Assembly: GCA_028716565.1 (NCBI GenBank)
Contig: JAQUPL010000007.1
Location: 10,819-74,818 of the forward strand
Source: Candidatus Omnitrophota bacterium
GTDB taxonomy: Bacteria > Omnitrophota > Gorgyraeia > Pluralincolimonadales > Pluralincolimonadaceae
Length of the DNA: 64,000 nucleotides
Reading direction: 5' to 3'
Shown: positions 2,395-19,156 of the stretch, piece after piece
Layout of the letters: the number at the start of each line of letters is the position of its first letter
How positions within the stretch are numbered: the stretch's first letter is position 1
Translations under genes and position numbers: made by a program
Notes under the pieces: model-generated
What the model was told of the DNA's origin: nothing
Seen by the model: only the letters and a program-made list of their open reading frames with translations
Database searches by the model: none

Positions 2395-2481
2395 GCCGAA
2401 GTGGCGGAACTGGCATACGCGCTGCGTTCAGGGCGCAGTGACCGTAAGGTCTTGAGAGTTCAAATCTCTCCTTCGGCACCA
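2395..2481 (+). tRNA. tRNA-Leu (anticodon CAG), 87 nt including CCA
   Basis: 7-bp acceptor stem GCCGAAG/CTTCGGC; anticodon stem CTGCG/CGCAG with loop TTCAGGG (anticodon CAG); long variable arm; T-loop GTTCAAATC; 3' ACCA. Confidence 0.85.
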
Positions 2482-3050: not shown

Positions 3051-3530
3051 TCAGAAACCCAGATTCCTGTCCAAGCTCCTGTAATTTATCGCCTCGGAGA
3101 TGTGTTCTGCAGATATTGTCTCTGCTCCCGCGAGGTCGGCTACCGTCCTCGCAATCTTGAGCACCTTATCATAGCCCCTCGCGCTCAGGCCTAGCTCCAG
3201 GATCGCCAGTTTCAAAAGTTCGGCCGCTTCTTTATCTATGCGGCAGAATTGCTCGAGGTATTTCGGGGAGAGATGGGCATTACAGAATATACTCAGCCCT
3301 TTGTACCTTTCCCCCTGCATCTTCCTCGCCTTATCCACCCTTTCTTTTATATCCGCCGAACTTTCTCCCCTGCTCTTGTTGGAGAGCTCCTTATACCTCA
3401 ATGACGGGACTTCGAGATGTATATCTATCCTGTCCAATAGCGGGCCCGAGACTTTAGAAAGGTAACGTTGGATCGCCGGCGGCGCGCAGTGGCATTCCTT
3501 CTTCGGGTCGGTAAAATATCCGCACGGGCA
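3051..3530 (-). pseudogene. comM: comM (YifB/Mg-chelatase-like ATPase) C-terminal fragment, separated from its N-terminal part by the island
   Basis: CPCGYFTDPKKECHC ... LSARGYDKVLKIARTVADLAG ... ISAEHISEAINYRSL matches the ComM/YifB C-terminus and resumes exactly after the NPCP that ends the fragment at 18092..19156. Confidence 0.85.
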
Positions 3531-5074
3531 CCCGTGTCGCTTGAATCCACACACAAGCCTGAATCTTGAGCACGGCTGATGATTTTAGGCGGAATTTGAA
3601 TAGAATAATCGACGAAATGCTTATCAATTTTGATTTCAGAGAGCAGATTGCGAAGCAATTCCTTCCTGTCTGGCATATCTAGCTCATCAAACACCTCTTT
3701 CATATCCTGACAAAGCCCAATGGTCGAATCTATATCATAATAATCAATATCGAGACTAGTAGGCTTGTCCCTCAATACTCCCAGCCTTTTGGCTATACCC
3801 GCTTCTTCAACGTCAACTAATTGCTTCCTCTCAAGGAACTCTGACTTGGTTATATTGCCACTTTCATAAAGCTCAAAAATCCTTTGCCTTTTTGCCATAG
3901 CTTTGTCCAACTGCGCCTGTAAGACTCTTACTTGCTCCCTTGTAGCTTCCGCTCCTTTATCATTCGAGATTACTGTCTCTTCCAAGGATTTCTTCACACG
4001 GTTAGAATCAATCGAGAGATTCTTAAGATTTCCGGTTATCAAGCTCTCAAGGCTATCTGCCCTTATGGAGCTTCCGCTGCATTGGGCATTGCCTTTCTGT
4101 GTGTGACCTGAGCATTTATAATAAGCGTATTTTGCCCCGTTAGGTTTGGTATACAGCATTCCGTGCATCCGGACTCCGCACCTGCTGCAGTAAACTAATC
4201 CAGTCAAGAGGTACTTTGCATTCGCCTTGGGCGCTATCTTAGACTGCTGCCTAACGATATCTCGTACCTTGTCAAATAGTTCCCGTGTTATCAAAGGCTG
4301 GTGTGCTCCCGCCCCCCTTATGTATCTTTCCACAGGGTTGTGTCTCAATTCGCCCCTGTAAGTGTGGCTCCTCTTGTTATAAACCACTTCGCCGTAGTAA
4401 CAGGGATTCGTCAAAATCCTCCTGACGGAAGTCGGGGCCCACATTCCGCCTTTCCTTGTCTTAATCCCATCTTCGTTTAGCTTATGCGTGACATACAGGA
4501 TTGACCTGTGCTCAAGATAAAAACTGAAAATTTCCCTAACTATGTCGGCCTCCAAAGAATTCACCCTAAGAGACTTGTTCTCGGACAAAAAACCGTATGG
4601 GGCAATGCCGCCGTTATACTTTCCCTGCTCTGCCCTTGAACACATCACATCCTTGACTCGTTCTGCCGTGGTTTCCCTCTCGAACTGGGAAAAAGCGGCC
4701 CTCATTGTGGAAAACACCCTCCCTGCTGGGGTGGAAGTGTCTATGTTGCCTTCCAAGCAGACGAACATTACGTTCTTTCTTTCAAAATTCTCAGTTGTAT
4801 CCAGAAAGTCTTTCGTGTTCCTAAAGAGACGGTCTAACTTGGTACAAAGGATTACGTCAAGCCTACCTGCTTCGATATCATCCATCATCCTGATGAACTC
4901 TGGCCTATTGGTGTTCTTTGCGGAGATTCCAGCATCCTTATACATAGCCACAACAGACCAGTCTTCTTTCGAGGTGACATAGGCTTCCAAACGCTTAAGT
5001 TGCACATCTAGCGACTCGCCCCGCTCCCTCTGCATATCAGTCGAAACCCTGATATATAAGCCACATCTCATCAT
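3425..5074 (-). CDS. large serine recombinase (integrase)
   Basis: N-terminal resolvase domain with GLYIRVSTDMQ (Ser nucleophile), a recombinase domain and a zinc ribbon (CSRCGVRMHG ... YYKC). The C-terminal Arg-rich tail (about 35 aa) is encoded across the island/comM junction. Confidence 0.9.
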   Translation of the reverse strand: MMRCGLYIRVSTDMQRERGESLDVQLKRLEAYVTSKEDWSVVAMYKDAGISAKNTNRPEFIRMMDDIEAGRLDVILCTKLDRLFRNTKDFLDTTENFERKNVMFVCLEGNIDTSTPAGRVFSTMRAAFSQFERETTAERVKDVMCSRAEQGKYNGGIAPYGFLSENKSLRVNSLEADIVREIFSFYLEHRSILYVTHKLNEDGIKTRKGGMWAPTSVRRILTNPCYYGEVVYNKRSHTYRGELRHNPVERYIRGAGAHQPLITRELFDKVRDIVRQQSKIAPKANAKYLLTGLVYCSRCGVRMHGMLYTKPNGAKYAYYKCSGHTQKGNAQCSGSSIRADSLESLITGNLKNLSIDSNRVKKSLEETVISNDKGAEATREQVRVLQAQLDKAMAKRQRIFELYESGNITKSEFLERKQLVDVEEAGIAKRLGVLRDKPTSLDIDYYDIDSTIGLCQDMKEVFDELDMPDRKELLRNLLSEIKIDKHFVDYSIQIPPKIISRAQDSGLCVDSSDTGARADILPTRRRNATARRRRSNVTFLKSRARYWTG

Positions 5075-7217: not shown

Positions 7218-8324
7218 TCAGAAGCCGGAAACACCCTTTAATTTTGCCCCTGTCACATCTGCTGTTCCTGACATAAGAGGCACGGCCTGAAACTTCCATA
7301 TGCTATTAGGTTCAAGATTATTTATACTATCTAATGCTGTGCCAACGTGGTTGCCGTCTTTATCATAAAGATTGAATTCTATTTGCACGTAAGAGTATCG
7401 CTTATTTGAATTATTTTTGACCTTGCCTGCTATGTTTTTATTTCCTACTGTGTAAGTCTTTCCACCGACACTTGCTTTATATGTAACCCAATCCCAATCC
7501 AGCACGGTAAAAGAATCGGTTTTGGGCATTGCTGGAACCACGCTTTGTTTAACGCTTGGGATAGGTTGATGTTCTATCCTGTAGTAACCTATAAGACACA
7601 TTATTACAAAAATCGCTATTGCTATGCCTACCCCTCCGGCAATCCTGAAAATGCTTTTCTTGTCGAAGCCGGATACCTTATCGAGTTCTTTACCGCTTCT
7701 CATTAAGTTCCCATATGATTTTAACCCAAAGGGCCCTTTTTGTTGCGATTGACCTGCCTGATGTTTCATACTGTTTTTCCGCCTTATATCCATAATAATG
7801 CCGATAATCATCCCGATTAAAGCAAATCCCCAGAAAGGCAGGCTAAATACTGACTGGAAAACAGATTCAGTTGGGAATAAAAAATTAAATAACAAGATGC
7901 CACCTATAAACCCTAATAGGCTATAAAAAGGAAAAAGCCCCCCTGTCTTGCCACAGTGAGGACAGGTAGTCGCATCTATACTCATCATTTTCTTACAGGA
8001 AAGGCACTGGATATATACCGCTCCCTTTTGGCCGTCATCAAATACCTCTCTGATTGTTTTTATCTGTATAGGATTTTTAGAAGCCAGTATTTCTGCCGCC
8101 TCTTCAACATTCTTGGCCTCTACGGTATCGGCGAAGCTTCCTTTCCAAGTCACCCATTCGCACTCATACTTCTTTGAGCCTGTTTTAGCCCCTTGTTTAT
8201 CAAGCATTTCTCCGCAATGCTTGCACTTAATAGCATCGTCTTGTATTTCTTCGGCACAGTAAGGACATTTTTTCATTTTAGCCCCCTTTTTCGTAAAATG
8301 AAGTATCTGTATAGATTGTATCAC
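7218..8324 (-). CDS. membrane protein with two N-terminal zinc ribbons (likely start MKKCPYC at 8276)
   Basis: [13 protein letters not shown] and CLSCKK..CPHCG ribbons, then hydrophobic helices and a C-terminal extracytoplasmic domain. No family assignment. Confidence 0.55.
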
Positions 8325-8372
8325 CCACTATCGTGGGTGTCAAGGTAAGGATACTTATGGGAGAATTAAGGC

Positions 8373-8588
8373 GTGGAAAACATTAATATAAGATTCGGAA
8401 ATAGGCTGAGGCAACTACGGAAGAGGAAGAAACTGACTCAGGAAAAACTTGCCGGTGCGACTGGTCTAGAATACAAATACATCCAGAGACTGGAAGGCAA
8501 GAAACCGTCGTCTCCTACCTTAAATACGTTAGAAAAACTCGCCAAAGCCTTTAACATCAGCGTATCTAAACTATTAAACTTCAAATAA
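8373..8588 (+). CDS. XRE-family HTH transcriptional regulator
   Basis: 71 aa; LRKRKKLTQEKLAGATGLEYKYIQRLEGKKPSSPTLNTLEKLAKAFNISVSKL is a classic HTH_XRE. Divergent from the zinc-ribbon membrane protein gene. Confidence 0.75.
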   Translation: MENINIRFGNRLRQLRKRKKLTQEKLAGATGLEYKYIQRLEGKKPSSPTLNTLEKLAKAFNISVSKLLNFK

Positions 8589-8590
8589 GA

Positions 8591-9514
8591 TTAGAGAACG
8601 CTTGCTTTTATTCTGTTGACTAATTTAATATGCAAATCTTCAGCATCTTTCCATAAAATATGGTTATATTGCCGAGTGTCAAAATGTAACTCATCCTTTT
8701 CGCTATCCTTACAAATCCAAATTACTTTAATTCCTAATCCTAATGCAAAACCTGCTTCAAAATAAACATTCTGTCGTTGCCCAGTAAAATCGGCTATTAG
8801 CAATCGTGATGTTTTAATTTCAGCAATAATTTCATCGCAAATTTTCTCATTATGCTCTATTAAATCAATCCTTACGGCACTCAAGCCACAATCTTCGCAA
8901 GCCTTTGCTATCGCCGCTTTGAAAATATCTTTCAAAGCGGCATCTTTAAAACTCATTGCTATAAAAACCTTTCTACTATGAATATTTGGTTCTTTAATAT
9001 GCTCGTATTCTTGCCAACCCCTGACTGTCAATCGTATTATGGAATATTGTCTACCAGCAGTAGTAAAATCTACGAAACCATTGTCTTTAAGATAGATAGC
9101 CAGGTTTTTTAATTCCTCTGGGTTTTTACAGAAAAATTTCGTGAATTCAGTAGAATACTCTACTGTGAATTCTTGTCCAATATAGTCTGAACGCCGTGCA
9201 AAATAAGATATAAGCATATCAAGTTTATCTTTAACTGCCAACCTCTTGTAATAAGCCACTTTCTCTGGAATTTGCATTATATCAGAAGACAGTAATCGCA
9301 AGATAATTCCTTGTTCGGCATTCTCTCTTATATATCCTGAAAATAGAATTTTATCTTCCTTAGATATGCTATCAATTATCTTATCGGATAATGCCTCATA
9401 TGAAACAATATAACTCACGCATAAAGGACAAGTAATCCTTTTGGCTTGACGCTCTGGCATATCGGTTATTTCTTTGGGTTGGCTACCACATATTATACAG
9501 ACTTCTTCTTGCAT
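8591..9514 (-). CDS. zinc-ribbon protein with C-terminal nucleoside 2-deoxyribosyltransferase-like (SLOG superfamily) domain
   Basis: N-terminal CIICG ... CPLC. The C-terminus KVFIAMSF ... LLIADFTGQRQNVYFEAGFALGLGIKVIWI matches the D-x-[ST]-G ... E-x-G-x-A ... GK-x-V signature of the Nuc_deoxyrib_tr / DNPH1-like fold. Confidence 0.5.
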   Translation of the reverse strand: MQEEVCIICGSQPKEITDMPERQAKRITCPLCVSYIVSYEALSDKIIDSISKEDKILFSGYIRENAEQGIILRLLSSDIMQIPEKVAYYKRLAVKDKLDMLISYFARRSDYIGQEFTVEYSTEFTKFFCKNPEELKNLAIYLKDNGFVDFTTAGRQYSIIRLTVRGWQEYEHIKEPNIHSRKVFIAMSFKDAALKDIFKAAIAKACEDCGLSAVRIDLIEHNEKICDEIIAEIKTSRLLIADFTGQRQNVYFEAGFALGLGIKVIWICKDSEKDELHFDTRQYNHILWKDAEDLHIKLVNRIKASVL

Positions 9515-9619
9515 ATAGCCCCCTACTATATAATAAGTTGTCCCGCCTTTACAGGTGTAGGCTCATATTCAAAGAATACTTCTAACGGCTTGTCTTTTGG
9601 ATTTATTTTCTTCATATTG

Positions 9620-10369
9620 CTATTCTGTTGAATTAACATCACACCTATCTATTATCCGCAATAAATAATTAGCGAAGAGTATAATCTCTGCCGCTTCATT
9701 TGGGTCACTTAAATTAACCTTGCGATGGCTTGATGGATTTTTAAACAACCCTATGCTACCAGCAAAGAGGTCAGAAGTCGCTTGTCGTTCTGCAGGAAGA
9801 GAGTCCACATCTGTCAGCCTGCCGTTGTCTGGATTGAACGCTGTTCTCATTAAGTTGACGCCTAATAAATCATCTGGTAAGCCCGCTTTTTCTCTCACCC
9901 TCACTTCAACTTCCTTATAGGCTCTAAAGACCGCCGTGTCATAGTCGCCTCGTATAAATAAGTTATAAACATTGTCAAAAAGATTACCATCTAATGCCTC
10001 TTTATGGAGTAAGTAATTTTTTTTGTAAGTGTCTAAGTCGACCTTTTTGCGATACTTGAAACCTTTCTTGGTTACATATCGCCAATCACTGCCTGACATA
10101 TTCGGGGTAGGGGCAATCATTCCCTCTTTTTCAAGCCAACACCACGCTTCCATAATCGCTTTTCCGACTTCATTTGTTTTGTCACCAGCATATCTTGAAA
10201 TGTTTTCATTTAGCGTAAAATTATGTCTATTCAGATGTCCTCTTTGCTGTTCCACGCTACCACAAAGGTAGTCCAATAGAAAAGCGGCGATTTCTTCTGG
10301 TTCAAGAAGCAACAACTCATCTGGAGGAAGTAATACGTCTTTAAGTTCGCTTGACATTCTAAACCTCAC
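9620..10369 (-). CDS. HEPN-domain protein of the Ymh (TIGR02391) family; putative toxin of a HEPN/MNT pair
   Basis: C-terminal YDTAVFRAYKEVEVRVREKAG ... GVNLMRTAF ... LFAGSIGLFKNPSSHRKV ... EAAEIILFANYLLRII fits the Ymh HEPN pattern, with an [R/K]NxxxH catalytic-type motif. Its start overlaps the MNT stop (ATGA). Confidence 0.65.
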   Translation of the reverse strand: MRFRMSSELKDVLLPPDELLLLEPEEIAAFLLDYLCGSVEQQRGHLNRHNFTLNENISRYAGDKTNEVGKAIMEAWCWLEKEGMIAPTPNMSGSDWRYVTKKGFKYRKKVDLDTYKKNYLLHKEALDGNLFDNVYNLFIRGDYDTAVFRAYKEVEVRVREKAGLPDDLLGVNLMRTAFNPDNGRLTDVDSLPAERQATSDLFAGSIGLFKNPSSHRKVNLSDPNEAAEIILFANYLLRIIDRCDVNSTE

Positions 10370-10701
10370 CCTTTTTCATAAATCACAATATTGCCGACGT
10401 CCAATCCCTTTTTAACGGTAGGGGTTTCTTCCGCATCATACCATTCCAAATCTACTTGATAATTCAACAGTTCGGTCAATTGCCCTTGCAACTTACTTCC
10501 TTGAGAGCACCAATAGCCAAATGCAGTATCCCCTTCTTTATCCTCTATTTCGATGGCTATATCAATATCGCTTGGACACCCGATTCTTCCTGCTGCGTAA
10601 GAACCGAACAGATAAATTCTTGTAATGCGTGGGTGACGAGTAACCCACTCTAAAAGTATTTTTTTTACTGAATCAATATCTGGAATTTTAATTATATTCA
10701 T
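10366..10701 (-). CDS. minimal nucleotidyltransferase (MNT, Pol-beta superfamily); putative antitoxin
   Basis: YLFGSYAAGRIGCPSDIDIAIEI is the GS-x(n)-DxD nucleotidyltransferase motif. Located immediately upstream of, and overlapping, the HEPN gene. Confidence 0.8.
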   Translation of the reverse strand: MNIIKIPDIDSVKKILLEWVTRHPRITRIYLFGSYAAGRIGCPSDIDIAIEIEDKEGDTAFGYWCSQGSKLQGQLTELLNYQVDLEWYDAEETPTVKKGLDVGNIVIYEKG

Positions 10702-10766
10702 CTGTCCCGACGCTTGGCTAACTATTTAATATCGGCTTCAATACAGAAATGGCGAGTCCTTTAGTT

Positions 10767-11261
10767 TTAGTATAGAACACCTCCTCCGAAAATTGCTATA
10801 AATAATATGCCGAAGAAAAAAGACCATTGGTGTATTGGAAGGATAACTACTATGACATCATTTATTATCTTAAATCTCTTATTTGCTTTTTTAATTACAC
10901 AATCATCGTGTTTCAATATGTCCTTAACTTTAGTCTTTTTCCCTCCCCTTTCTATCTCCTCTTCGGGATTGTTATTGCTTAGACCGCTAATTTCACTTTT
11001 TGCTCTTAAATCTATTAGTTCATAATACAGGGCATCGATTCGTAATCTCACAAATATAACTCCAGTAATAATATTGAGGACTAAAAAGCCTAATCCATAA
11101 ATTAATATGGAATTCAAATATTGGGGCGTTTCAGGCTTTATGAATCTAACTGAAAAAACAATTGCTCCTGTAGATAAGCCTATCATCCATTTAGATAAAT
11201 TTATATATTCTCTATTGGTTTCTTCGACAAGTCTATTTTCTATATTATCTTCGTTATTCAT
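10767..11261 (-). CDS. small membrane protein (about 3 TM), unknown function
   Basis: Hydrophobic helices; no motif. Confidence 0.4.
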   Translation of the reverse strand: MNNEDNIENRLVEETNREYINLSKWMIGLSTGAIVFSVRFIKPETPQYLNSILIYGLGFLVLNIITGVIFVRLRIDALYYELIDLRAKSEISGLSNNNPEEEIERGGKKTKVKDILKHDDCVIKKANKRFKIINDVIVVILPIHQWSFFFGILFIAIFGGGVLY

Positions 11262-11572
11262 CGACTACTCCTTCTGCTATTTTCTTTCCACCCTTTAACC
11301 CTACCGTCCTTCATATAAAAAGTAATCGTGTCTCCCCGCTCTTTGGACGTCCAATTGCTGAAGGTAATCCATTCGTCTGTGCCTTCTTTGTGGTAGCCCA
11401 TCTGGAGGTATTCGGTATAGCCAGCCTTCGCCAAGTCCTCTTTGGGCATACCGACATAGACCACACCATATTCGGGCAGCTTCTCGGCTCTTTTGAGATA
11501 TTCTGGGTCATACTCCCTGCTAGAGCAACCAAATATAATAAATATTAGCACGACTGGAATCAGATATTTCAT
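11258..11572 (-). CDS. lipoprotein (signal peptide plus lipobox IFGCSS)
   Basis: MKYLIPVVLIFIIFGCSS lipobox; start overlaps the upstream gene stop. Confidence 0.5.
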   Translation of the reverse strand: MKYLIPVVLIFIIFGCSSREYDPEYLKRAEKLPEYGVVYVGMPKEDLAKAGYTEYLQMGYHKEGTDEWITFSNWTSKERGDTITFYMKDGRVKGWKENSRRSSR

Positions 11573-11754
11573 ATGCGTTTCTTTTTAGGTTGCCCGCCGT
11601 CAATCGAGTCAGTCAATGCCTTCAACTTGACTTGAAGGTGTTCGGGATTGCAACAGATTGCCTTTTTCAGGGTTCTGTGGGACAGGAAATAGCAGATTCT
11701 TCCGTTTTTTCTACCCCAGCCAACCAGTATCCTTTTAGATTCGCCTATTTTCAC
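11569..11754 (-). CDS. small hypothetical protein (61 aa)
   Basis: Co-directional and overlapping start/stop with neighbours; no motif. Confidence 0.3.
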   Translation of the reverse strand: MKIGESKRILVGWGRKNGRICYFLSHRTLKKAICCNPEHLQVKLKALTDSIDGGQPKKKRI

Positions 11755-11785
11755 AATACTCTCCTTTTTAAAAACTCTCGGTCGT

Positions 11786-12673
11786 TTATTTTAGAAATTT
11801 TCTTTGCTTTATTAATTGCTCTTCTTCTACTGTCCAGTTAGGTTCATAAACGTTTGGAATATCGAAATCTGTGTCCCTATCCCAGTCACCCTTCATCTCA
11901 AGTTTAATTATCTGAAAGGCTATTATAGACACCTGGTCTTCTTTACCATCAGGCAAAGGAATCTTCTGAATCGTTGGGGTTCCGATAGATGCATATTTTG
12001 ATGTGAAACTATACCAATAAGTTTTAGTGGTTGCATTTTCTTTTTCTCTATAACCCTCGTAAGCAATAACTACGTTGAAATAAATTCGTTCTGCCACAGA
12101 TGAACAATCAGCACCATAATTAAACTTTAAGTTTTCTTGCTTTGGAAATACGATAGTCGGATAGGGGTAAGAACCCAGATTGTCAATAAAATACTTCGGA
12201 GTATCAAGATTCCTTTTATCGGCACTGGTAGTTACAAAATATGAAACCTTGGTAACAACTGCTGGTATGATTCCCTCGTTCTTAAATTTAACTTCGGCTA
12301 TAACCATATAATAAGTTGAAATTTTGCCTGTTTTGGTATCAACCTCTATGCGTGGTTTAATGGAGACATTTTCAATCTCAACATATATATATGGTCTCTT
12401 ACCAAGACTTAACTCTTTTATCTGAATGTCTACGCTGTCTTTTTGTGCCAAAACCGAGTTTCTTAATATCCGTGCCTGCCAAAACATAAATCCTGCCATC
12501 AAGAATGTTGCGATAGCAAGAAATAGTGTAACTACGGTAAGGGCAAATTGAACTTGAAGATGTTTCTCATCTACCCATTTAAGGAATGTTTTCCAAATGT
12601 TCAAGTTATGCTCCATAAATAAAAAAAGCGTTATCCTACACTTCAAGCCTGACGCTTGCGACTTTTTGAGCAA
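11786..12673 (-). CDS. membrane-anchored protein with about 230-aa extracytoplasmic domain, unknown function
   Basis: One N-terminal TM helix (LFLAIATFLMAGFMFW) followed by a beta-rich domain. Confidence 0.45.
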   Translation of the reverse strand: MLKKSQASGLKCRITLFLFMEHNLNIWKTFLKWVDEKHLQVQFALTVVTLFLAIATFLMAGFMFWQARILRNSVLAQKDSVDIQIKELSLGKRPYIYVEIENVSIKPRIEVDTKTGKISTYYMVIAEVKFKNEGIIPAVVTKVSYFVTTSADKRNLDTPKYFIDNLGSYPYPTIVFPKQENLKFNYGADCSSVAERIYFNVVIAYEGYREKENATTKTYWYSFTSKYASIGTPTIQKIPLPDGKEDQVSIIAFQIIKLEMKGDWDRDTDFDIPNVYEPNWTVEEEQLIKQRKFLK

Positions 12674-12859
12674 ATTTCCACAACGTCTTTTTCCTTCGCT
12701 TACTTAGACTTTTTAATCTTTTGAACTATTGCAGTATTTTTCTGGCTTTTGGCTCTTGCTACTGACATAAACTTTCCTGTTATAGCACTTCTACCGATTT
12801 TAAATGTCTTGCCCATTCATTACCTCCTTTTGTAATGTTGCCTAATTCATATTCCTGGA

Positions 12860-13228
12860 TTAGTAAGTCTGTAGTTTGATAGTAATCAAAATAGCAATAA
12901 TAAAAACTGTCATTGATGCAACAAATAAAACAATAAATGTCCAATAAAGTCGTTCAGCCCATATTCCCCATCTGCTATTCCTAAAGTCGTAATTTTTAAT
13001 TTTCCCGTCTATCACAAGCTCATAATGCTTGGAGGAGCAGATGCTACTAACAAGATGAACACCTATTGTCAAGATAAACCCTAAAAGTGTTATTAAATAC
13101 CAACTTTGAATTCCATATTTATCACATATGATAAAAATTGATGCGAGAACGGTCAAGGAGAGGGTTATTACCCTATTGCTTATTTCTGAATTTATTTTCT
13201 TATATTCTTCAATTAACTGATTACTCAA
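12860..13228 (-). CDS. small membrane protein (3 TM), unknown
   Basis: Hydrophobic helices; TTG start overlaps the stop of a 51-aa basic ORF upstream. Confidence 0.4.
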   Translation of the reverse strand: MSNQLIEEYKKINSEISNRVITLSLTVLASIFIICDKYGIQSWYLITLLGFILTIGVHLVSSICSSKHYELVIDGKIKNYDFRNSRWGIWAERLYWTFIVLFVASMTVFIIAILITIKLQTY

Positions 13229-13380
13229 CGTGCCCTCCTCGGGGGTCTGGGTGCTGTAAATTTACCTCCCCTGCTGCTACGCCCAGACATTTTCCCACGA
13301 CATTGCCCAGTTTGTTTATCAATGTAGTATAAATAACCTTTTCGACGTTTAATCTCTTTCTTCATTATCTTTTTCTTCAT
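13225..13380 (-). CDS. possible small basic protein (51 aa; below ORF-track cutoff)
   Basis: Manual translation MKKKIMKKEIKRRKGYLYYIDKQTGQCRGKMSGRSSRGGKFTAPRPPRRAR; its stop overlaps the TTG start of 12860..13228. Confidence 0.25.
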   Translation of the reverse strand: MKKKIMKKEIKRRKGYLYYIDKQTGQCRGKMSGRSSRGGKFTAPRPPRRAR

Positions 13381-13626
13381 ACTATCTCTCCCTCAATGCC
13401 CACTATGCATCCTTATTCAATTCCTTTTTATGTTCTATAATATTATCGAGTTTGTTACTAATGTCGTTGAGGTATTTATTTGTAGAGTCGACATTGTTAA
13501 CGAGTTTTTCTATATTAAGCCCGATTAGTATTAGGGCTACAATTGCAATCACTCCTATAGCAATCATATTCACCTCATTTCTTCAATACAGTTTTAATGC
13601 CCAAGCAACTATTAATTGTTTTTTAT

Positions 13627-14061
13627 TCATTTGTCTACTTCTTGCCCACAATTAGAGCAAGCATCCTGAAATACTTTATTTTTCTCATTACAAGAAGGAC
13701 AAGTCCAATATCCATCCTTAGAAGACACCTTTAGAATTTCATTTTTCTTCAAATTCTCATTAGGTATCATATTAGCTGGAGGTTCTCGTTTATTTATCTT
13801 TTTATATTCCTTATACCAAATTATTCCTATCGCTATTGCGAGGATAACTTCGAGAGTATCTGTAAAATCACGAGATATGTCAGGGATGGAGTTAAGAAAA
13901 CTAAACAATTTTTTGAATAGCACAGCCAATACTATTACGGTTAAAAATTTTATTAAATACATTTTGGTTTCTTTAAGTTTCCTCCAGTTACAATGTTTTC
14001 CATAAAGAAATATCCCCATAAAAAATAATACAGCTGATGGGACGCTTCCAAAGTAAATCAT
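13627..14061 (-). CDS. small membrane protein with C-terminal zinc ribbon
   Basis: Two or three TM helices, then CPSCNEKNKVFQDACSNCG. Confidence 0.45.
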   Translation of the reverse strand: MIYFGSVPSAVLFFMGIFLYGKHCNWRKLKETKMYLIKFLTVIVLAVLFKKLFSFLNSIPDISRDFTDTLEVILAIAIGIIWYKEYKKINKREPPANMIPNENLKKNEILKVSSKDGYWTCPSCNEKNKVFQDACSNCGQEVDK

Positions 14062-14447
14062 TTATTGTCCTCCAGGGTCATCTTTTTACGATAATTATTC
14101 AACCTATGTCCAATTACTGCACTCATAATATAAATAGCGGAGACTAGTGATAAAATTCCCACTAATCCTCCTTTTACTGAATTCGGCTCACCGTCCTCAT
14201 TAGTTCCTAATGTCCAAGACTCGGGAATAAAAAAGAACGCTCTATCCAATCCAATATATAAGATTAACAACAATGAAATACCCGCTCCAATAATAATCGC
14301 AAAAGTGATTCTTCCTCGTCCATAACCACACTCGTCATAATCTAACCGCTCGGGCTTGAATATCAAATTCCAAACAAATATAAGAGACGACAGATAGAGA
14401 AAAATATAACACACGGTTATAGCGATATTTACAACAAGTTCCATCAT
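14058..14447 (-). CDS. small membrane protein (3 TM), unknown
   Basis: Hydrophobic; start/stop overlap with neighbours. Confidence 0.45.
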   Translation of the reverse strand: MMELVVNIAITVCYIFLYLSSLIFVWNLIFKPERLDYDECGYGRGRITFAIIIGAGISLLLILYIGLDRAFFFIPESWTLGTNEDGEPNSVKGGLVGILSLVSAIYIMSAVIGHRLNNYRKKMTLEDNK

Positions 14448-14481
14448 CCCTCCCTAAGAAGGTTGTTAAGTTAATTGAGAA

Positions 14482-14694
14482 TTAGTTTTTCTTTTCTGGA
14501 CGAAGTATGGAATTCAGTTTAACAGCAACCACGAGTCCAATCCAGCCAACGATTGCACACATCCATTGCTTTAGGAAAACTCCCCCGCCTCCCAATAATC
14601 CTGTCCCGAGCAAGTAGAGGGAAACAAAAGCAAGACCGCTAATACATATCATTAGATGTAACTCTAGGAGCTCTTTTTTCGTTGGAAGTCTCAT
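14482..14694 (-). CDS. small membrane protein (2 TM), unknown
   Basis: Hydrophobic 70-aa ORF; overlaps the next gene by 4 bp. Confidence 0.4.
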   Translation of the reverse strand: MRLPTKKELLELHLMICISGLAFVSLYLLGTGLLGGGGVFLKQWMCAIVGWIGLVVAVKLNSILRPEKKN

Positions 14695-14999
14695 CTCTTC
14701 ACCGATTTAATAAAATAAACAATAAAAATGATGCCCCCAATTAAATCTGCAATCCTCCACGCTTCTTTTCCGAAATAAAACTTCATAAATGGATTAAACA
14801 ATAAGGCAACAATCCCTAATACCCAAGCCCAGCCAAATTCCTTTTTTTGGTAAGTCAAATATGCCCCATAAGCTCCTACTCCACACACAAAGAACCTCAA
14901 TAATTGATAATACGAATACGGTAAATCTCCCAATGCTATAAATAACACTATGCCTGCAATTAAAAATATAGGATTTCTTTTCATATAAGCAAACCTCAC
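14691..14999 (-). CDS. small membrane protein (3 TM), unknown
   Basis: Hydrophobic 102-aa ORF. Confidence 0.4.
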   Translation of the reverse strand: MRFAYMKRNPIFLIAGIVLFIALGDLPYSYYQLLRFFVCGVGAYGAYLTYQKKEFGWAWVLGIVALLFNPFMKFYFGKEAWRIADLIGGIIFIVYFIKSVKR

Positions 15000-15006
15000 T
15001 TTTTAA

Positions 15007-15420
15007 CTAAATTTTAAATTGGTTTTGCCATTCTCTTGAAATATTCTTTGTTCTTGCCGAAACTATAAACATAGTTATTATGAGTAGGGGTATAATCAAT
15101 AATTCCCAATCGTTTACTCTGCCTAAAACACCAAGAACGAGGAAAATAATTAAACTAAAGCGTTTATAACCGCAAACCTTAGAACGCTGGTAGCTAACAT
15201 TAAAAATTGAAAAATATAAAGTGAATTGTATTATTATTAACACCCACACAAACCAAAGTGGAGCAGTAGCACGAATAGCATTTAACCATAACGTTACACC
15301 AATATAACCTATAAGAATACTAAGAATGCTAACAACAAACATTCTTCTCTCAATTTTCAAACCTTTTGTTTTAAGAAATTCGCTTAGATTCATTTCCCCT
15401 TCAATGTCCTTATCGCCCAA
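15007..15420 (-). CDS. small membrane protein (4 TM), unknown
   Basis: Hydrophobic 137-aa ORF. Confidence 0.4.
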   Translation of the reverse strand: MGDKDIEGEMNLSEFLKTKGLKIERRMFVVSILSILIGYIGVTLWLNAIRATAPLWFVWVLIIIQFTLYFSIFNVSYQRSKVCGYKRFSLIIFLVLGVLGRVNDWELLIIPLLIITMFIVSARTKNISREWQNQFKI

Positions 15421-15593
15421 ATGACGAAACGAAATACGAGGTAAATAGGATAACCAAAAAAGAACAACATATAGCCTGCATTCGAAGTATTAGCGTTGCT
15501 TCCTGGTATGACCTCAGCCGTCATAATAAACGCTGCTAATATAATCCCTATTAATATTAATCCTTCTCTTGCTACGATTTTCTTAATGTTCAT
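15390..15593 (-). CDS. small membrane protein (2 TM), unknown
   Basis: 67-aa hydrophobic ORF. Confidence 0.35.
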   Translation of the reverse strand: MNIKKIVAREGLILIGIILAAFIMTAEVIPGSNANTSNAGYMLFFFGYPIYLVFRFVIWAIRTLKGK

Positions 15594-15633
15594 TCCTTGC
15601 TCCTGTAGTCATTTACCGAGAATTAAATCAGTA

Positions 15634-15828
15634 TCATCTGAGATATAATATAATAACTGCTATCAACAATATAAATACAAGACAGCCCATACAACCACCA
15701 TCTCCGCTACGATGCAAGCCATTTTCGAGGTCATCTACTTTGCTCTCAAGGCCGTCCACCCTGCTTTCTACGTCATCTATTCTATCTCGTGGCTCATAAT
15801 AATCAGAATCTTCGGTTTCGTCTTTCAT
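15634..15828 (-). CDS. small tail-anchored protein (acidic coiled-coil N-terminus, C-terminal TM)
   Basis: DDVESRVDGLESKVDDLENG followed by CLVFILLIAVIILYL; first gene of the co-directional array. Confidence 0.35.
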   Translation of the reverse strand: MKDETEDSDYYEPRDRIDDVESRVDGLESKVDDLENGLHRSGDGGCMGCLVFILLIAVIILYLR

Positions 15829-15883
15829 ATTATTTCTCCGATTTCTTTTCTTCGTATATTATCCTGCCATCTTCTTAATTAAA

Positions 15884-15913
15884 AAGGTAACCCCCTATTT
15901 AGAGGGTTACCTT
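15884..15913 (-). terminator. perfect 10-bp inverted repeat (AAGGTAACCC / GGGTTACCTT) with U-run on the minus strand; terminator or insulator upstream of the small-membrane-protein operon
   Basis: 10-bp stem, 10-nt loop; the minus-strand sequence continues TTTTAATT. Confidence 0.4.
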
Positions 15914-16301
15914 ACGAATTTAACCTGATTTTGACCTCATAACTGCCCCTTTGCGGTTGGAGTCTCATTATCCTACTAAGAGAGCCTCAATTCAACCCTT
16001 TTTTGGCTGTTCTGGGGCATTTGTAAGCACTCTTGGGTCTTTTTAGGGATAGACAATTTAACTTCGTTTTTTGCTTAATTTTAGGGTATAATTTGTGCTT
16101 GGATACCTTGTTGAACTTCGCATTCTGTATAAATTACGAAACAAAATTCATTTGATTATTTATTAGTTCATACGTATGATGAATAGGGATGACTCTAATG
16201 ACAATTTTTTATTATTAAAAGATGGTAAATATGTTTGATTTCTCAATTGATTAAGAGTATGATAAATTCCAGATTAGTGTTTGTTAAGGGAATATACTTA
16301 A

Positions 16302-17519
16302 ATGGTAAATAAAACAATATTATTATTGCTATTTATTAGCCTTATCTGTGGTTGTAGCTATGCTAGTAATGCTATCTCAGAAAATCCATCCCCCAATCCT
16401 GCAAATAAGAATATTGAGAGCAACAATACGCCTTCGGATATCTCTAACCTTATAGAAGAAAAAATAGATGCGAAAATAGGCAAATTAAAGGATGCATATT
16501 TAGAGAATGGCATTTTATCTAATAAACAATATTTAGATAGCTTAGGTAGAATAGAAAATAATGTTGATACGGATTTAGGCCGAATTTGGAAGCTTTTAAG
16601 TGCGGTCGGAATAGTAATCGCTATCCTGGGAATATTTGGATTTTCTAACTTAGCAGAATTATATAGGTCAATACATAGAGCTAAAGGCGACCTTGACCAA
16701 ACAGGTAAATTGTATAAAACTATGGAAAATAAGCTACGTCAACAATCTCAGGAGTTAGAAGAAAGATACGGATACCTCACCGACCCATCATTAACAACAA
16801 AAATAGCGCCTACATTATTAGATGAAAATAAATTTCTTAATTACGACCACCAGTTATATTTTATGCCCGTGTTTTTACCTATAACAAAAAATTTTAACTT
16901 ATATAAAAATTCTTTACTTAAAATTGGTATTTTCTTCTTATGGCAAGGTAATTATGCGAGAGCTATTTTACGCTTTGAAGAAATAGAAAAATTAACAGAG
17001 ATAGAACACAAAAAATTTATATTAGGTAAAAATATTTTGGGGGATAAAACGGACGTATTTTTAAATGCTTATGGAAATGCTTGTTCATATTATGCTACAG
17101 AAAAATGCACTAAAGGCTCATCTGAATGGAATGAATATATAGTTAAAGCTGAGGATTATTACAAAAAATCAATAAAAATTAATAAATTTTTTCAAAAACC
17201 ATACTATAATCTTGGCTTATTATATGCTGTGGATAAATACAACTTGGATAAAAATAAGGAGAATTGTCAAAAAGCACTTGAATATTATACCCTTGGACTC
17301 AAATATACAAAAGAACCAAACGATGTTTATGCTATTAAATGGAATATGGCTTGCAGTAAGGTTAAATTAGAAGCTCCGATTGAAGAAGTTATGGAACTGC
17401 TTGAATCTATCCCTGTGAACAACCACTTTTGGCCAAAAATACAAGAAGATTCCGTCTTTAATCCAATAAAAAGCACGCCCGAATGGCGTGCTCTTATAAC
17501 TAGAAAAACTTCTAATTAA
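16302..17519 (+). CDS. lipoprotein with helical/TPR-like repeats (island cargo)
   Basis: Signal peptide with LICGCS lipobox; low-complexity N-terminus; Y/N-rich helical repeats. Confidence 0.55.
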   Translation: MVNKTILLLLFISLICGCSYASNAISENPSPNPANKNIESNNTPSDISNLIEEKIDAKIGKLKDAYLENGILSNKQYLDSLGRIENNVDTDLGRIWKLLSAVGIVIAILGIFGFSNLAELYRSIHRAKGDLDQTGKLYKTMENKLRQQSQELEERYGYLTDPSLTTKIAPTLLDENKFLNYDHQLYFMPVFLPITKNFNLYKNSLLKIGIFFLWQGNYARAILRFEEIEKLTEIEHKKFILGKNILGDKTDVFLNAYGNACSYYATEKCTKGSSEWNEYIVKAEDYYKKSIKINKFFQKPYYNLGLLYAVDKYNLDKNKENCQKALEYYTLGLKYTKEPNDVYAIKWNMACSKVKLEAPIEEVMELLESIPVNNHFWPKIQEDSVFNPIKSTPEWRALITRKTSN

Positions 17520-17859
17520 CCCCGTTATACGCTTTTTGTATTCTCGCTATACATTTTAATCACCTTCCTGTACTTAAAGTATATCTCAAAAATTAACTAA
17601 AATCAATGCCTCTATTGTTTTTTAAGGAAGTGTTTTCTCTATAGACAATTATAGCCTCGGTCAATACCAAGGCTAATTTTTAAGATTTTTAGGATATAAA
17701 TATAGTTTTTTGGCAAAGCTTGCTTTCCCATAAGTGCTTTCTATTTTACTAACCTTAAGATACTCTGTCAAGCGAAATATCATACGAAACTCCTCTTCCC
17801 AATTTTACAATCCCCTTTCTGTCTGCACCTAAAACAGCTCAAACCGACTGTCGTGACAA

Positions 17860-18091: not shown

Positions 18092-19156
18092 TCACGGGCA
18101 GGGGTTCATCGCGGCGACGAGCATGAATTTGGCCGGGTAACTGAAATTATACGCGGCCCTCGAAACGGTGATAGTCCCGCCTTCAAGCGGCTGGCGCAAA
18201 GCCTCCAAAGCATCGCGATGGAATTCCGGGAGTTCATCCAAAAATAGCACGCCGTTATGCGCGAGGCTTATCTCCCCGGGCTTTAAAACCTTGCCTCCCC
18301 CGACAAGGCCGGCATATGAGACCGTATGGTGCGGCATGCGGAACGGGCGCCGCGAGACCAGGAAGTTCCTGCTGTCGAGCAGCCCCGAGACGCTGTGGAT
18401 CTTTGTCGTCTCGAGCATCTCCCCGAAGGATAGCCCTGGCAATATAGTTACCAGCCGCTGGGCAAGCATCGTCTTGCCGGAGCCGGGCGGGCCGATCATA
18501 AGGACGTTGTGGCCGCCGGCAGCCGCTACCTCGAGGCCGCGCTTTACGTGCCATTGCCCTTTTACGTCGCTGAAATCGATATCAGAACCGCCGGACGACG
18601 GCTTCGGCACCCCGGCAAGATCGACTTTCAGCGGTTCGATCTTCGCGTTGCCCTTCAGGAAATTCACCACTTCGCCGAGGTCTCTCGCCGGAAAGACCGA
18701 GATCCCGCTGACGATGGCCGCCTCCCTGGCGTTCTCCGACGGCAGGATAAAATCATTCCCCCCGTTCTCCGAAATACATATCGCGATAGGCAGGGCGCCG
18801 TTTATCGGCCTCAGCCTGCCATCAAGCGATAACTCGCCGCAAAATACTTTTCCGTCCACATGGCCCTGCTCCAGGTCCCCGGCGGAGACGAGCAAGCCCA
18901 ACGCTATGGCCAGGTCAAAAGAAGCCCCTTCTTTCCGCAGATCCGCCGGCGCCAGGTTTATCGTTATCTTTTTCGGATGCAATTTAAAACCGGAATTTTT
19001 TATCGCCGAGATGACCCTGTCCCTGCTTTCCCTGACCGCGGTATCCGGGAGGCCGACTATCGTAAAACCCGGCAGGCCTCCACTGGTATCCACCTCAACA
19101 TCCACTTTTTTCGCTTCTATCCCCAACACTGTCCTGCTCTCTATTTTCGCAAGCAT
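18092..19156 (-). pseudogene. comM: comM N-terminal fragment (Lon-like N domain plus AAA+ Walker A GPPGSGKT), truncated after AAMNPCP by the island
   Basis: [48 protein letters not shown] ... [14 protein letters not shown] ... [11 protein letters not shown] then stop. The continuation (CGYFTD ...) is at 3051..3530. Confidence 0.85.

Follow-up and report, generated by a model that had tools for sequence, protein, structure and literature searches.

A mobile 307-residue protein with zinc-ribbon, winged-helix and NDT/TIR-like domains from Candidatus Omnitrophota is a candidate single-gene sensor-effector

What role might be played by a protein in which a zinc ribbon is joined to a domain resembling nucleoside 2-deoxyribosyltransferases (NDT), and which is encoded on a mobile element? 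The question is raised by a 64,000-nucleotide stretch of a Candidatus Omnitrophota genome (GCA_028716565.1, contig JAQUPL010000007.1, positions 10,819 to 74,818 of the forward strand; hereafter the window), where a gene for such a 307-residue protein occupies positions 8591..9514 of the minus strand. A preliminary description of this DNA had cast the product as a candidate nucleotide-targeting effector, a role that we likewise infer. The reading we favour, with about even confidence and by analogy with known systems, is that it acts as a stand-alone, horizontally mobile single-protein sensor-effector of the abortive-infection type, directed against phages or other mobile genetic elements (MGEs), and that it would be an N-glycosidase depleting nicotinamide adenine dinucleotide (NAD+) or nucleotides.

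The open reading frame (ORF) was confirmed, with an ATG start and 307 codons, and is preceded on the minus strand by a Shine-Dalgarno-like AGGGGG read from the sequence (9519..9524), 5 nt 5' of the ATG. The gene is real, because an identical protein is present at NCBI (MDD5546874.1, from a Ca. Omnitrophota metagenome-assembled genome, or MAG) and 3,254 homologues exist at E<=1e-3, the best 120 of which are nearly all full-length. From the N to the C terminus, the product comprises a zinc ribbon, a helical part, a winged helix and an N-(deoxy)ribosyltransferase/DNPH1-like (DrHyd)/TIR-like Rossmannoid catalytic domain. All motifs previously named were located (CIIC at residues 6-9, CPLC at 29-32, DFTG at 242-245, EAGFA at 253-257 and GIKV at 261-264), and the ordered D-x-T-G...E-x-G-x-A...G-x-K-V pattern was reproduced in none of 200,000 composition-preserving shuffles. 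The G-x-K-V element is present in the window protein, but its lysine is variable across the family, where the consensus reads GLGxxVIWTC.

Structural comparison places the catalytic domain (residues 181-307; 8594..8974, minus strand; assigned from Foldseek, Pfam and PADLOC) with NDT, BcmB and DNPH1, and no unrelated fold came up. For example, a Foldseek search of the PDB with an AlphaFold2 model of the full-length protein (mean predicted local distance difference test score, pLDDT, 89.6) returned the NDT 8qc0 as the best match (E=6.5e-4), together with the cytidine monophosphate (CMP) N-glycosidase BcmB (4jen) and many DNPH1/Rcl entries, at a probability of 1.00 and with template modelling (TM) scores on the target of 0.56-0.75, BcmB reaching 0.69-0.74 and DNPH1/Rcl up to 0.75. 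The TIR domain of SARM1 followed at ranks 28 and 48 of the 50 best PDB matches. The solved NDT, DNPH1 and BcmB relatives share 8-19% sequence identity with the window protein. Similarly, the domain matched viral NDT and CMP/hydroxymethyl-CMP (hmCMP) hydrolases in the viral structure library BFVD. At the level of sequence profiles, PF05014 was matched singly by 51 of the 55 relatives in our alignment (E<=0.01, best 2e-7), several of which carry a precomputed PF05014 annotation, and together with the Foldseek matches this bears out the earlier claim that the C-terminal ~125 residues adopt a TIR-related, NDT/DNPH1-like Rossmannoid fold.

The strongest profile match was to the PADLOC model PDLC00733 ('Effector - TIR'), which was detected in the window protein at E=2.4e-11 and in all 55 relatives (best 4.1e-16, residues ~195-293), while a match of the window protein to Pfam PF10137 reached 13.7 bits against a cut-off of 24.7 and covered 16 residues. 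TIR domains of the PF10137 type have an Asp, a long loop and an NV-x-x-E-x-G arrangement, all of which also occur in the C-terminal domain of the window protein. In a published classification, TIR, DrHyd and SLOG domains make up one Rossmannoid clade, with NDT and DNPH1 assigned to DrHyd and SLOG as a sister branch (PMC9503650). As judged from sequence and model, the domain appears to lie on the border of the NDT/DNPH1 ('DrHyd') and TIR-like domains; its predicted fold and active site make it a member of the NDT/DrHyd-TIR superfamily, though not of PF05014 by the Pfam threshold, and the profile matches indicate that it belongs with PF05014 at the superfamily rather than the family level. The label 'SLOG' used in the preliminary description is imprecise, because no SLOG, LOG or DprA family was matched at E<=1 in Pfam, NCBIfam or PADLOC, nor did any appear in the top 50 structures that Foldseek retrieved from the PDB.

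Residue conservation was assessed in an alignment of 55 sequences of the window protein family (A1) and in a smaller alignment of 34. When the PDB was searched by sequence, using either the protein alone or the 55-sequence profile, only Rcl/DNPH1 came up, at E~1-2; these matches are not significant and were used for residue mapping. In the profile search, the VYFEAGFA motif was aligned with GVGYELG of Rcl/DNPH1, placing Glu253 (codon 8756..8758, minus strand), which is invariant in 55/55 sequences, on the Glu of the latter motif, which we take to be the DNPH1 nucleophile (rat E93, human E104). Glu253 is consequently the predicted catalytic nucleophile. Also invariant among the 55 sequences are H221, Y251, G255, C268, F278, D279, R281, Q282, Y283 and W288. 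Five of these (F278, D279, R281, Q282 and Y283) fall in the family-specific motif HFDTRQYNH (278-285), where T280, N284 and H285 are conserved in >=90% of sequences; the region of residues 274-281 (8672..8695, minus strand) within this motif, as read from the alignment, may form a phosphate- or substrate-binding loop and is a candidate phosphate clamp.

The N-terminal half of the protein is made up of three further parts. Residues 1-40 (9395..9514, minus strand; alignment and model) carry the CxxC...CPLC arrangement noted before, and cysteine conservation supports a four-Cys zinc ribbon: C6, C9, C29 and C32 are all invariant in the 34-sequence alignment, and the 55-sequence alignment shows no variation at C29 and C32 and >=90% conservation at C6 and C9. 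The ribbon was modelled as three short beta-strands (pLDDT 85-97). Residues 41-112 (9179..9394, minus strand; alignment and model) form a helical linker or domain with conserved S59 and R63 in an LFSGYxR motif, which was modelled at pLDDT >95 and gave no specific structural match in Foldseek. Residues 113-176 (8987..9178, minus strand; model and Foldseek) form a winged helix-turn-helix (HTH) with the modelled order beta-H-H-beta-beta-H and conserved L162, G166 and W167 in the wing. Its Foldseek matches, to the winged helices of MarR, the CodY C-terminal domain, AF1382 and ORC, were all weak (TM on target ~0.5-0.6, E>=4e-3). The two-part architecture initially proposed was therefore incomplete, having overlooked the winged helix between the zinc ribbon and the catalytic domain. 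When residues 1-182 were modelled alone (pLDDT 93.8; predicted TM score, pTM, 0.86), the fold search of these N-terminal 182 residues found nothing below E=4e-3 and generic winged helices only, with no relation to the DNA-binding lobe of the retron effector or the AUX domain of Swarozyc.

The two halves of the protein differ in conservation, with a mean pairwise identity of 59.5% in the C-terminal domain versus ~29-30% in each N-terminal part. In addition, the C-terminal domain ends far longer ORFs at some loci (1,125 aa at L066 7070..10447, 660 aa at L086 6150..8132 and 496 aa at L069 4783..6273), and several relatives of ~320 aa (e.g. L065, L073, L076 and L096 from Leptospira) match residues ~125-307 only, from which it follows that the effector domain is paired with alternative N-terminal modules.

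The domain combination, at first thought unusual, defines a large, conserved, full-length family. A hidden Markov model search of 1.84 billion cluster representatives (50% identity) recovered 4,432 at E<=1e-30 and 21,478 at E<=1e-3, and the best 150 of the 4,432 were almost all 290-340 aa long and matched end to end. With the HFDTRQYNH motif as search pattern, carriers were identified in at least 594 of 185,579 species genomes (GTDB, one genome per species), i.e. at least 0.3% of species, including Omnitrophota, Planctomycetota, Bacteroidota, Acidobacteriota, Chloroflexota, Proteobacteria, Firmicutes, Patescibacteria and archaea. Many members are annotated as 'nucleoside 2-deoxyribosyltransferase' (PGAP, IMG) or 'hypothetical'. 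The preliminary description did not recognise this architecture from described defence systems, and it was found neither in PADLOC 2023 nor in the literature searched, which held no paper on a stand-alone NDT-like or zinc-ribbon TIR-like defence gene, although subscription journals were thinly covered and absence is not proof. Widespread chromosomal conservation outside islands, which would have pointed to a housekeeping role, was not observed: the gene is patchy, non-syntenic and, in the window, island-borne.

Does the protein work with a partner? The gene neighbourhoods of 75 related loci, in which ORFs were called by a simple longest-ORF rule and the +-4 neighbours were clustered, held no neighbour family in more than 4 of the 75. 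The preliminary description had proposed a three-gene module with the adjacent genes of the window, but homologues of the window HEPN, MNT and XRE genes were found at 0/93 related loci (blastp/tblastn, E<=1e-2 for HEPN/MNT). Tightly coupled small ORFs were present upstream at 4/62 loci and downstream at 6/62, in unrelated families; a hidden small partner such as an antitoxin was considered and rejected, as these ORFs are few and mutually unrelated. With no conserved neighbour, no HEPN, MNT or XRE gene and no recurrent coupled small ORF, the gene is therefore a stand-alone unit.

Although no single neighbour recurs, the surroundings of the gene differ from those further away. Among 134 immediate (+-2) neighbours, domains of restriction-modification (R-M) systems were the most frequent (N6_Mtase 5, ResIII 5, Eco57I 4, SWI2_SNF2 3, Methylase_S 3 and HSDR_N 2), with integrases and transposases next, whereas 134 control genes at least 6 positions away at the same loci were mostly housekeeping (SecDF, DnaA, FtsH, SmpB, tRNA synthetase; N6_Mtase 3, Eco57I 2). 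R-M genes lay within +-4 genes at a minimum of 9 of the 75 loci. For example, in two unrelated MAGs (L025, 6970..7884; L029, 9851..10771) the homologue sits inside a type I R-M operon, with hsdM upstream and hsdS, hsdR and a DUF45-like gene downstream, and at a third locus (L015, 9980..10897) it lies directly 3' of hsdR; by analogy, such placement hints that the protein may back up restriction in some lineages. Plasmid p4 of Leptospira interrogans (L096, 5129..9941) is a phage-plasmid on which a baseplate J gene lies close to the homologue. Here a bSEFIR gene (E=2.4e-100) and a gene for a 772-aa methyltransferase flank the homologue, all co-directional with gaps of ~12-70 bp, and together they make up a compact defence islet in a cultivable pathogen. 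Further neighbours include a DrmD-like SNF2 helicase (DISARM-like, E=3.3e-102), ParE/Phd, Fic, and ImmA/IrrE with an HTH gene.

In one lineage, the homologue P0079 (24 contigs; L004-L007) lies 137 bp 3' of a 546-aa DRT-type reverse transcriptase (RT; PADLOC RT_UG9_small, E=2.9e-71; homologue at L004 6001..6912), with a Schlafen/AlbA_2 gene nearby. The association is confined to this lineage and the RT is DRT UG9-like, so a link to retrons through it was rejected.

Copies of the gene were also found on plasmids and viral contigs. Full-length copies occur on conjugative megaplasmids of Bacillus mycoides, beside a prophage remnant, and the copy on the Leptospira phage-plasmid conserves query residues 127-307 only; further plasmids carry the gene as well. 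In IMG/VR, relatives were detected on 56 of 2.9 million contigs (30 after dereplication), next to R-M genes, integrases and packaging genes. Among 50,697 cultured phage records there were no full-length matches, but C-terminal domain relatives only, in streptococcal and staphylococcal temperate phages, and BFVD likewise gave matches to the C-terminal domain only, with no full-length viral relative. A match to PHROG 16139 (E=1.9e-49) was not placed in a characterised phage, because the cultured phages have C-terminal domain relatives only. These relatives, in Streptococcus prophage 315.2 (SpyM3_0974; L094, 4899..5678) and 16 other streptococcal or staphylococcal phages, contain the catalytic domain alone (27-39% identity over ~85-120 residues). 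Their genes belong to the lysogeny module, where they separate the repressor gene from cro and share the strand of integrase and repressor; they are probably the 'distinct TIR version of small Firmicutes phages' of PMC9503650. Taken with the R-M-rich near set versus the housekeeping far set and the patchy distribution, the mobile copies link the family to defence through guilt by association and, at small numbers, mark it as an accessory gene that spreads horizontally and accumulates in defence islets.

If the protein is an abortive-infection sensor-effector, the zinc ribbon, helical part and winged helix (1-176) would form the specificity or sensor module, which varies from one lineage to the next and whose ligand is most likely a nucleic acid or an invader protein. 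Binding of the invader ligand would release or assemble the catalytic domain (181-307), by analogy with type II retrons and Swarozyc, and activation would probably involve oligomerisation, as it does for effectors of the TIR, retron-NDT and DUF4062 types. Once active, Glu253 would attack the anomeric carbon of a nucleotide substrate, most likely NAD+, with (deoxy)nucleoside monophosphates ((d)NMPs) or adenine nucleotides as alternatives, and depletion of this essential metabolite would abort the infection.

The closest functional analogue for this mechanism is Swarozyc, in which a TIR-like NADase (DUF4062) is coupled to an HTH/winged auxiliary domain and which is activated by the phage portal (10.64898/2026.05.01.722283). 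Both are single proteins that combine a TIR/NDT-related domain bearing a catalytic Glu with an HTH/winged recognition module, and Swarozyc is likewise found in defence islands, but it belongs to a different Pfam family (DUF4062 was matched in 1/55 members, weakly, at E=0.0046), has the opposite domain order and lacks the zinc ribbon. Type II retron effectors also pair an NDT-like domain with a winged helix (PMC7736814), and E106 of the Ec86 effector is required for defence (10.1101/2023.08.16.553469). Retron-Eco1/Ec86 and Sen2 RcaT resemble the window protein in having an NDT-like Rossmannoid domain with a catalytic Glu, a winged helix and a length of ~300-320 aa, and are themselves anti-phage toxic effectors that are kept latent and act on nucleotides. 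However, these effectors begin with the NDT-like domain and end with the winged helix, the reverse of the order seen here; they lack a zinc ribbon and are obligately encoded with an RT and a non-coding RNA (ncRNA), whereas the window family is stand-alone. The PDB sequence searches gave no match to the Ec86 effector chains (E<=10), and no PADLOC retron model was matched, while an ncRNA was not searched for; an RT was not a recurrent neighbour, the single RT neighbour (L004) being the DRT UG9-like one.

Other known systems share one half of the architecture or its genomic setting. The TIR-like effectors of CBASS and Pycsar (PF10137 CAP12/PycTIR; PDLC00733) provide the best profile match of the C-terminal domain and act in abortive infection by degrading NAD+, but the window protein has a zinc ribbon and a winged helix in place of their SAVED, STING or cNMP-binding domains, and no cyclase/CD-NTase was present among the conserved neighbours of the 75 loci or the top neighbour families. 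The NDT, DNPH1 (Rcl) and BcmB-MilB proteins (PF05014, 'DrHyd') are the closest solved folds, have a catalytic Glu at the same motif position and are the source of the database name; their solved chains, however, are single domains of ~120-155 residues, and the family-specific EHNEK and HFDTRQYNH motifs aligned to nothing in these relatives. The solved examples are metabolic or antibiotic-biosynthesis enzymes. A different precedent comes from PrrC, an anticodon nuclease with an ABC-ATPase-like domain that is sequence-unrelated to the window family; prrC sits inside the EcoprrI type I R-M operon, where its product is a suicide effector backing up restriction. The copies in or after type I R-M genes at L025, L029 and L015 resemble this arrangement, but most family copies lie outside R-M operons.

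Several observations weigh against the sensor-effector interpretation. Foldseek matches reach only modest E-values (best 6.5e-4), as the query is a multi-domain protein, and PF05014 falls below its gathering threshold in the window protein (21.1 vs 28.8 bits, E=3.6e-4, profile positions 46-102 of 117). The protein matched no complete PADLOC system model, only the domain-level effector model, and the substrates of the nearest solved folds are deoxynucleoside monophosphates (dNMPs), CMP or nucleosides and not NAD+, although the defence profiles closest to it are those of NADases. The N-terminal module is without an informative structural relative, so that 'sensor' is an assignment by elimination. 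The defence-neighbour signal rests on small numbers (the 9/75 loci, and N6_Mtase 5 near vs 3 far) without phylogenetic correction, and several loci look plainly chromosomal, with metabolic neighbours, such as L001 (purB/purL) and L010 (dCMP deaminase). Finally, the literature searched contained no experimental report of phage protection by a family member.

In a variant that we consider unlikely, the family would be an unrecognised single-gene immune system in which the zinc ribbon and winged helix directly sense invader nucleic acid or, where the gene is embedded in R-M operons, an anti-restriction factor, and the enzyme would cleave a substrate other than NAD+, such as a modified (d)NMP or DNA bases. 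If this were so, nucleotide-depletion immunity would gain both a chemistry and a mode of sensing that are new to it, and the NDT/DNPH1 enzymes of metabolism would be connected with the TIR domains of immunity.

A related and improbable alternative, which would still be a conflict function, is a DNA-directed glycosylase, whose NDT-like domain would be anchored on DNA through the zinc ribbon and winged helix and would there excise modified phage bases or host bases. Two modules of DNA-binding type stand ahead of the catalytic domain, the gene lies repeatedly in or next to R-M operons, whose products likewise act on DNA, and relatives of the DNPH1 and BcmB/MilB types recognise modified pyrimidine nucleotides such as hydroxymethyl-dUMP (hmdUMP) and hmCMP (8rps, 4jen; BFVD 'CMP/hydroxymethyl CMP hydrolase'). 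However, the NDT/DNPH1/TIR-type Foldseek matches include no glycosylase of polymer DNA, the invariant R281/Q282/Y283 loop reads more easily as a clamp for the phosphate of a mono- or dinucleotide, and the winged helices of analogous defence proteins bind multicopy single-stranded DNA (msDNA) or portal as regulators, not as substrate guides.

Improbable to a like degree is that the protein is a transcription factor, with the zinc ribbon and winged helix on an operator and the NDT/TIR-like domain as a non-catalytic nucleotide sensor regulating genes of the element. The winged-helix matches are indeed mostly transcription regulators (MarR, CodY), and the TIR-DrHyd-SLOG clade includes inactive sensor versions (PMC9503650). 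Against this, the catalytic Glu and ~30 positions of the C-terminal domain are invariant or conserved in >=90% of sequences at 30-40% overall identity, as one would expect of an active enzyme; related loci share neither a target operon nor synteny; and the part that varies is the DNA-binding part, not the 'sensor'.

The database name itself would imply an ordinary nucleotide-salvage or sanitising enzyme of the NDT or DNPH1 type with an accessory nucleic-acid-binding domain, and the closest solved folds and the purB/purL and dCMP deaminase neighbours at L001 and L010 agree with it. We nevertheless regard this as distinctly improbable. The distribution of the gene is patchy (at least 594 of 185,579 species) and without synteny, its copies lie on islands, plasmids and prophages, and its near neighbours are enriched in R-M genes, integrases and transposases, in contrast to the housekeeping genes further away. 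In addition, the window protein scores under the PF05014 threshold, the TIR effector model fits the family better, and the 180-residue N-terminal module matches no NDT or DNPH1 structure.

Carriage by an integrative element, plasmids and 56 viral contigs, the PHROG 16139 match and the distant C-terminal domain relatives in lysogeny modules of streptococcal prophages could also be read as signs of a counter-defence enzyme that benefits the MGE by destroying immune signals (cyclic ADP-ribose (cADPR) isomers, cyclic oligonucleotides, modified nucleotides) or host nucleotide pools. This is very unlikely, as the family is rare in viral data relative to cellular genomes in all three viral collections, its prophage copies occupy lysogeny or moron positions by integrases and R-M genes, which is typical of host-protective cargo, and domains of the TIR/DrHyd NADase type are under-represented in viruses according to published surveys (PMC9503650). 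Least likely, and largely refuted by comparative genomics, is that the protein completes a module with the HEPN/MNT pair or the XRE gene, as its third component or its toxin: the gene does lie on the same strand 105 bp 3' of MNT-HEPN, a gap with no convincing sigma-70 promoter (scan of 8200-10900 with the sigma-70 consensus, the host being an Omnitrophota MAG), and the XRE gene abuts its 3' end, but none of the three recurs at related loci, the few coupled small ORFs are unrelated, and the overlapping MNT and HEPN genes look like a self-sufficient type VII pair.

Under the sensor-effector reading, TIR proteins, type II retrons and Swarozyc already offer precedents for both the effector class and the sensor-effector logic, and what is new is an abundant, unannotated architecture; the advance would for that reason be incremental, not conceptual. 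It would nonetheless add to anti-phage immunity, as a compact one-gene system, an abundant family whose present annotation as metabolic is misleading. The family would also provide a case for studying how NDT/DNPH1-type and TIR-type N-glycosidases and their immune substrates are related, the substrate of the retron NDT effector being debated, and how small nucleic-acid-binding modules can gate a toxic enzyme without a partner protein. It is present in uncultivated phyla, archaea and plasmids of Bacillus and Leptospira, and its cultivable hosts, with homologues such as WP_078178485.1 of B. mycoides and WP_192505173.1 of Leptospira, make it an easily testable candidate.

In the window, the gene is part of an element of ~14.5 kb (about 3.5-18.1 kb) that agrees with the mobile island claimed in the preliminary description: GC content is 0.31-0.47 over ~3-18 kb versus 0.50-0.58 outside, and a large serine recombinase (Resolvase, Recombinase and Zn_ribbon_recom domains; 3425..5074) at the left end has an ORF that runs 130 nt into a fragment of comM/yifB (Mg-chelatase-like). 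The element splits the latter gene into an N-terminal fragment of 354 codons (18092..19156, minus strand) and a C-terminal fragment of 167 codons (3051..3554, minus strand), and because the former ends in ...AAMNPCP and the latter holds ...CPCGYF..., the crossover is placed in the conserved NPCPCGY region. A tRNA-Leu(CAG) gene (2395..2481) lies just outside, and no recognisable phage structural genes were present in the element.

The immediate neighbours are arranged as previously described, with a convergent XRE gene on one side and, upstream on the other, the HEPN and MNT genes in the same orientation as the 307-aa gene. The XRE/HTH_3 gene (8373..8588, plus strand) ends 2 bp from the 3' end of the 307-aa gene. 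The HEPN gene (9620..10369, minus strand; Hypoth_Ymh/TIGR02391, E=1.4e-25) encodes 249 aa with an N-terminal extension of ~125 aa and overlaps by 4 bp the MNT gene (Polbeta/NTP_transf_2, MntA-like; 10366..10701, minus strand); by sequence, the two appear to be an independent, self-sufficient type VII toxin-antitoxin(-like) pair. The HEPN protein also gave weak matches to PADLOC Aga_HEPN and PD-Lambda-3_B.

The remaining cargo is varied. Divergent from the XRE gene, a 368-aa protein (7218..8324, minus strand) has two N-terminal zinc ribbons (Zn_ribbon_3, DZR), predicted membrane spans and a C-terminal FxLYD domain (NF038353, E=1.8e-21), and matches phrog_14275 (E=2.1e-19). Half of the island cargo consists of ~10 small genes (10767..15420, minus strand), most of them hydrophobic, probably membrane proteins, without family matches; the product of one (13627..14061) ends in a CxxC...CxxC zinc ribbon. 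Next to these, the lowest-GC stretch of the window (15420..17520; 0.31-0.35) is also where GC skew changes sign; it contains an ORF-poor gap of ~880 bp and then, on the opposite strand (16302..17519, plus strand), a gene for a 405-aa lipoprotein-like, repeat-rich protein.

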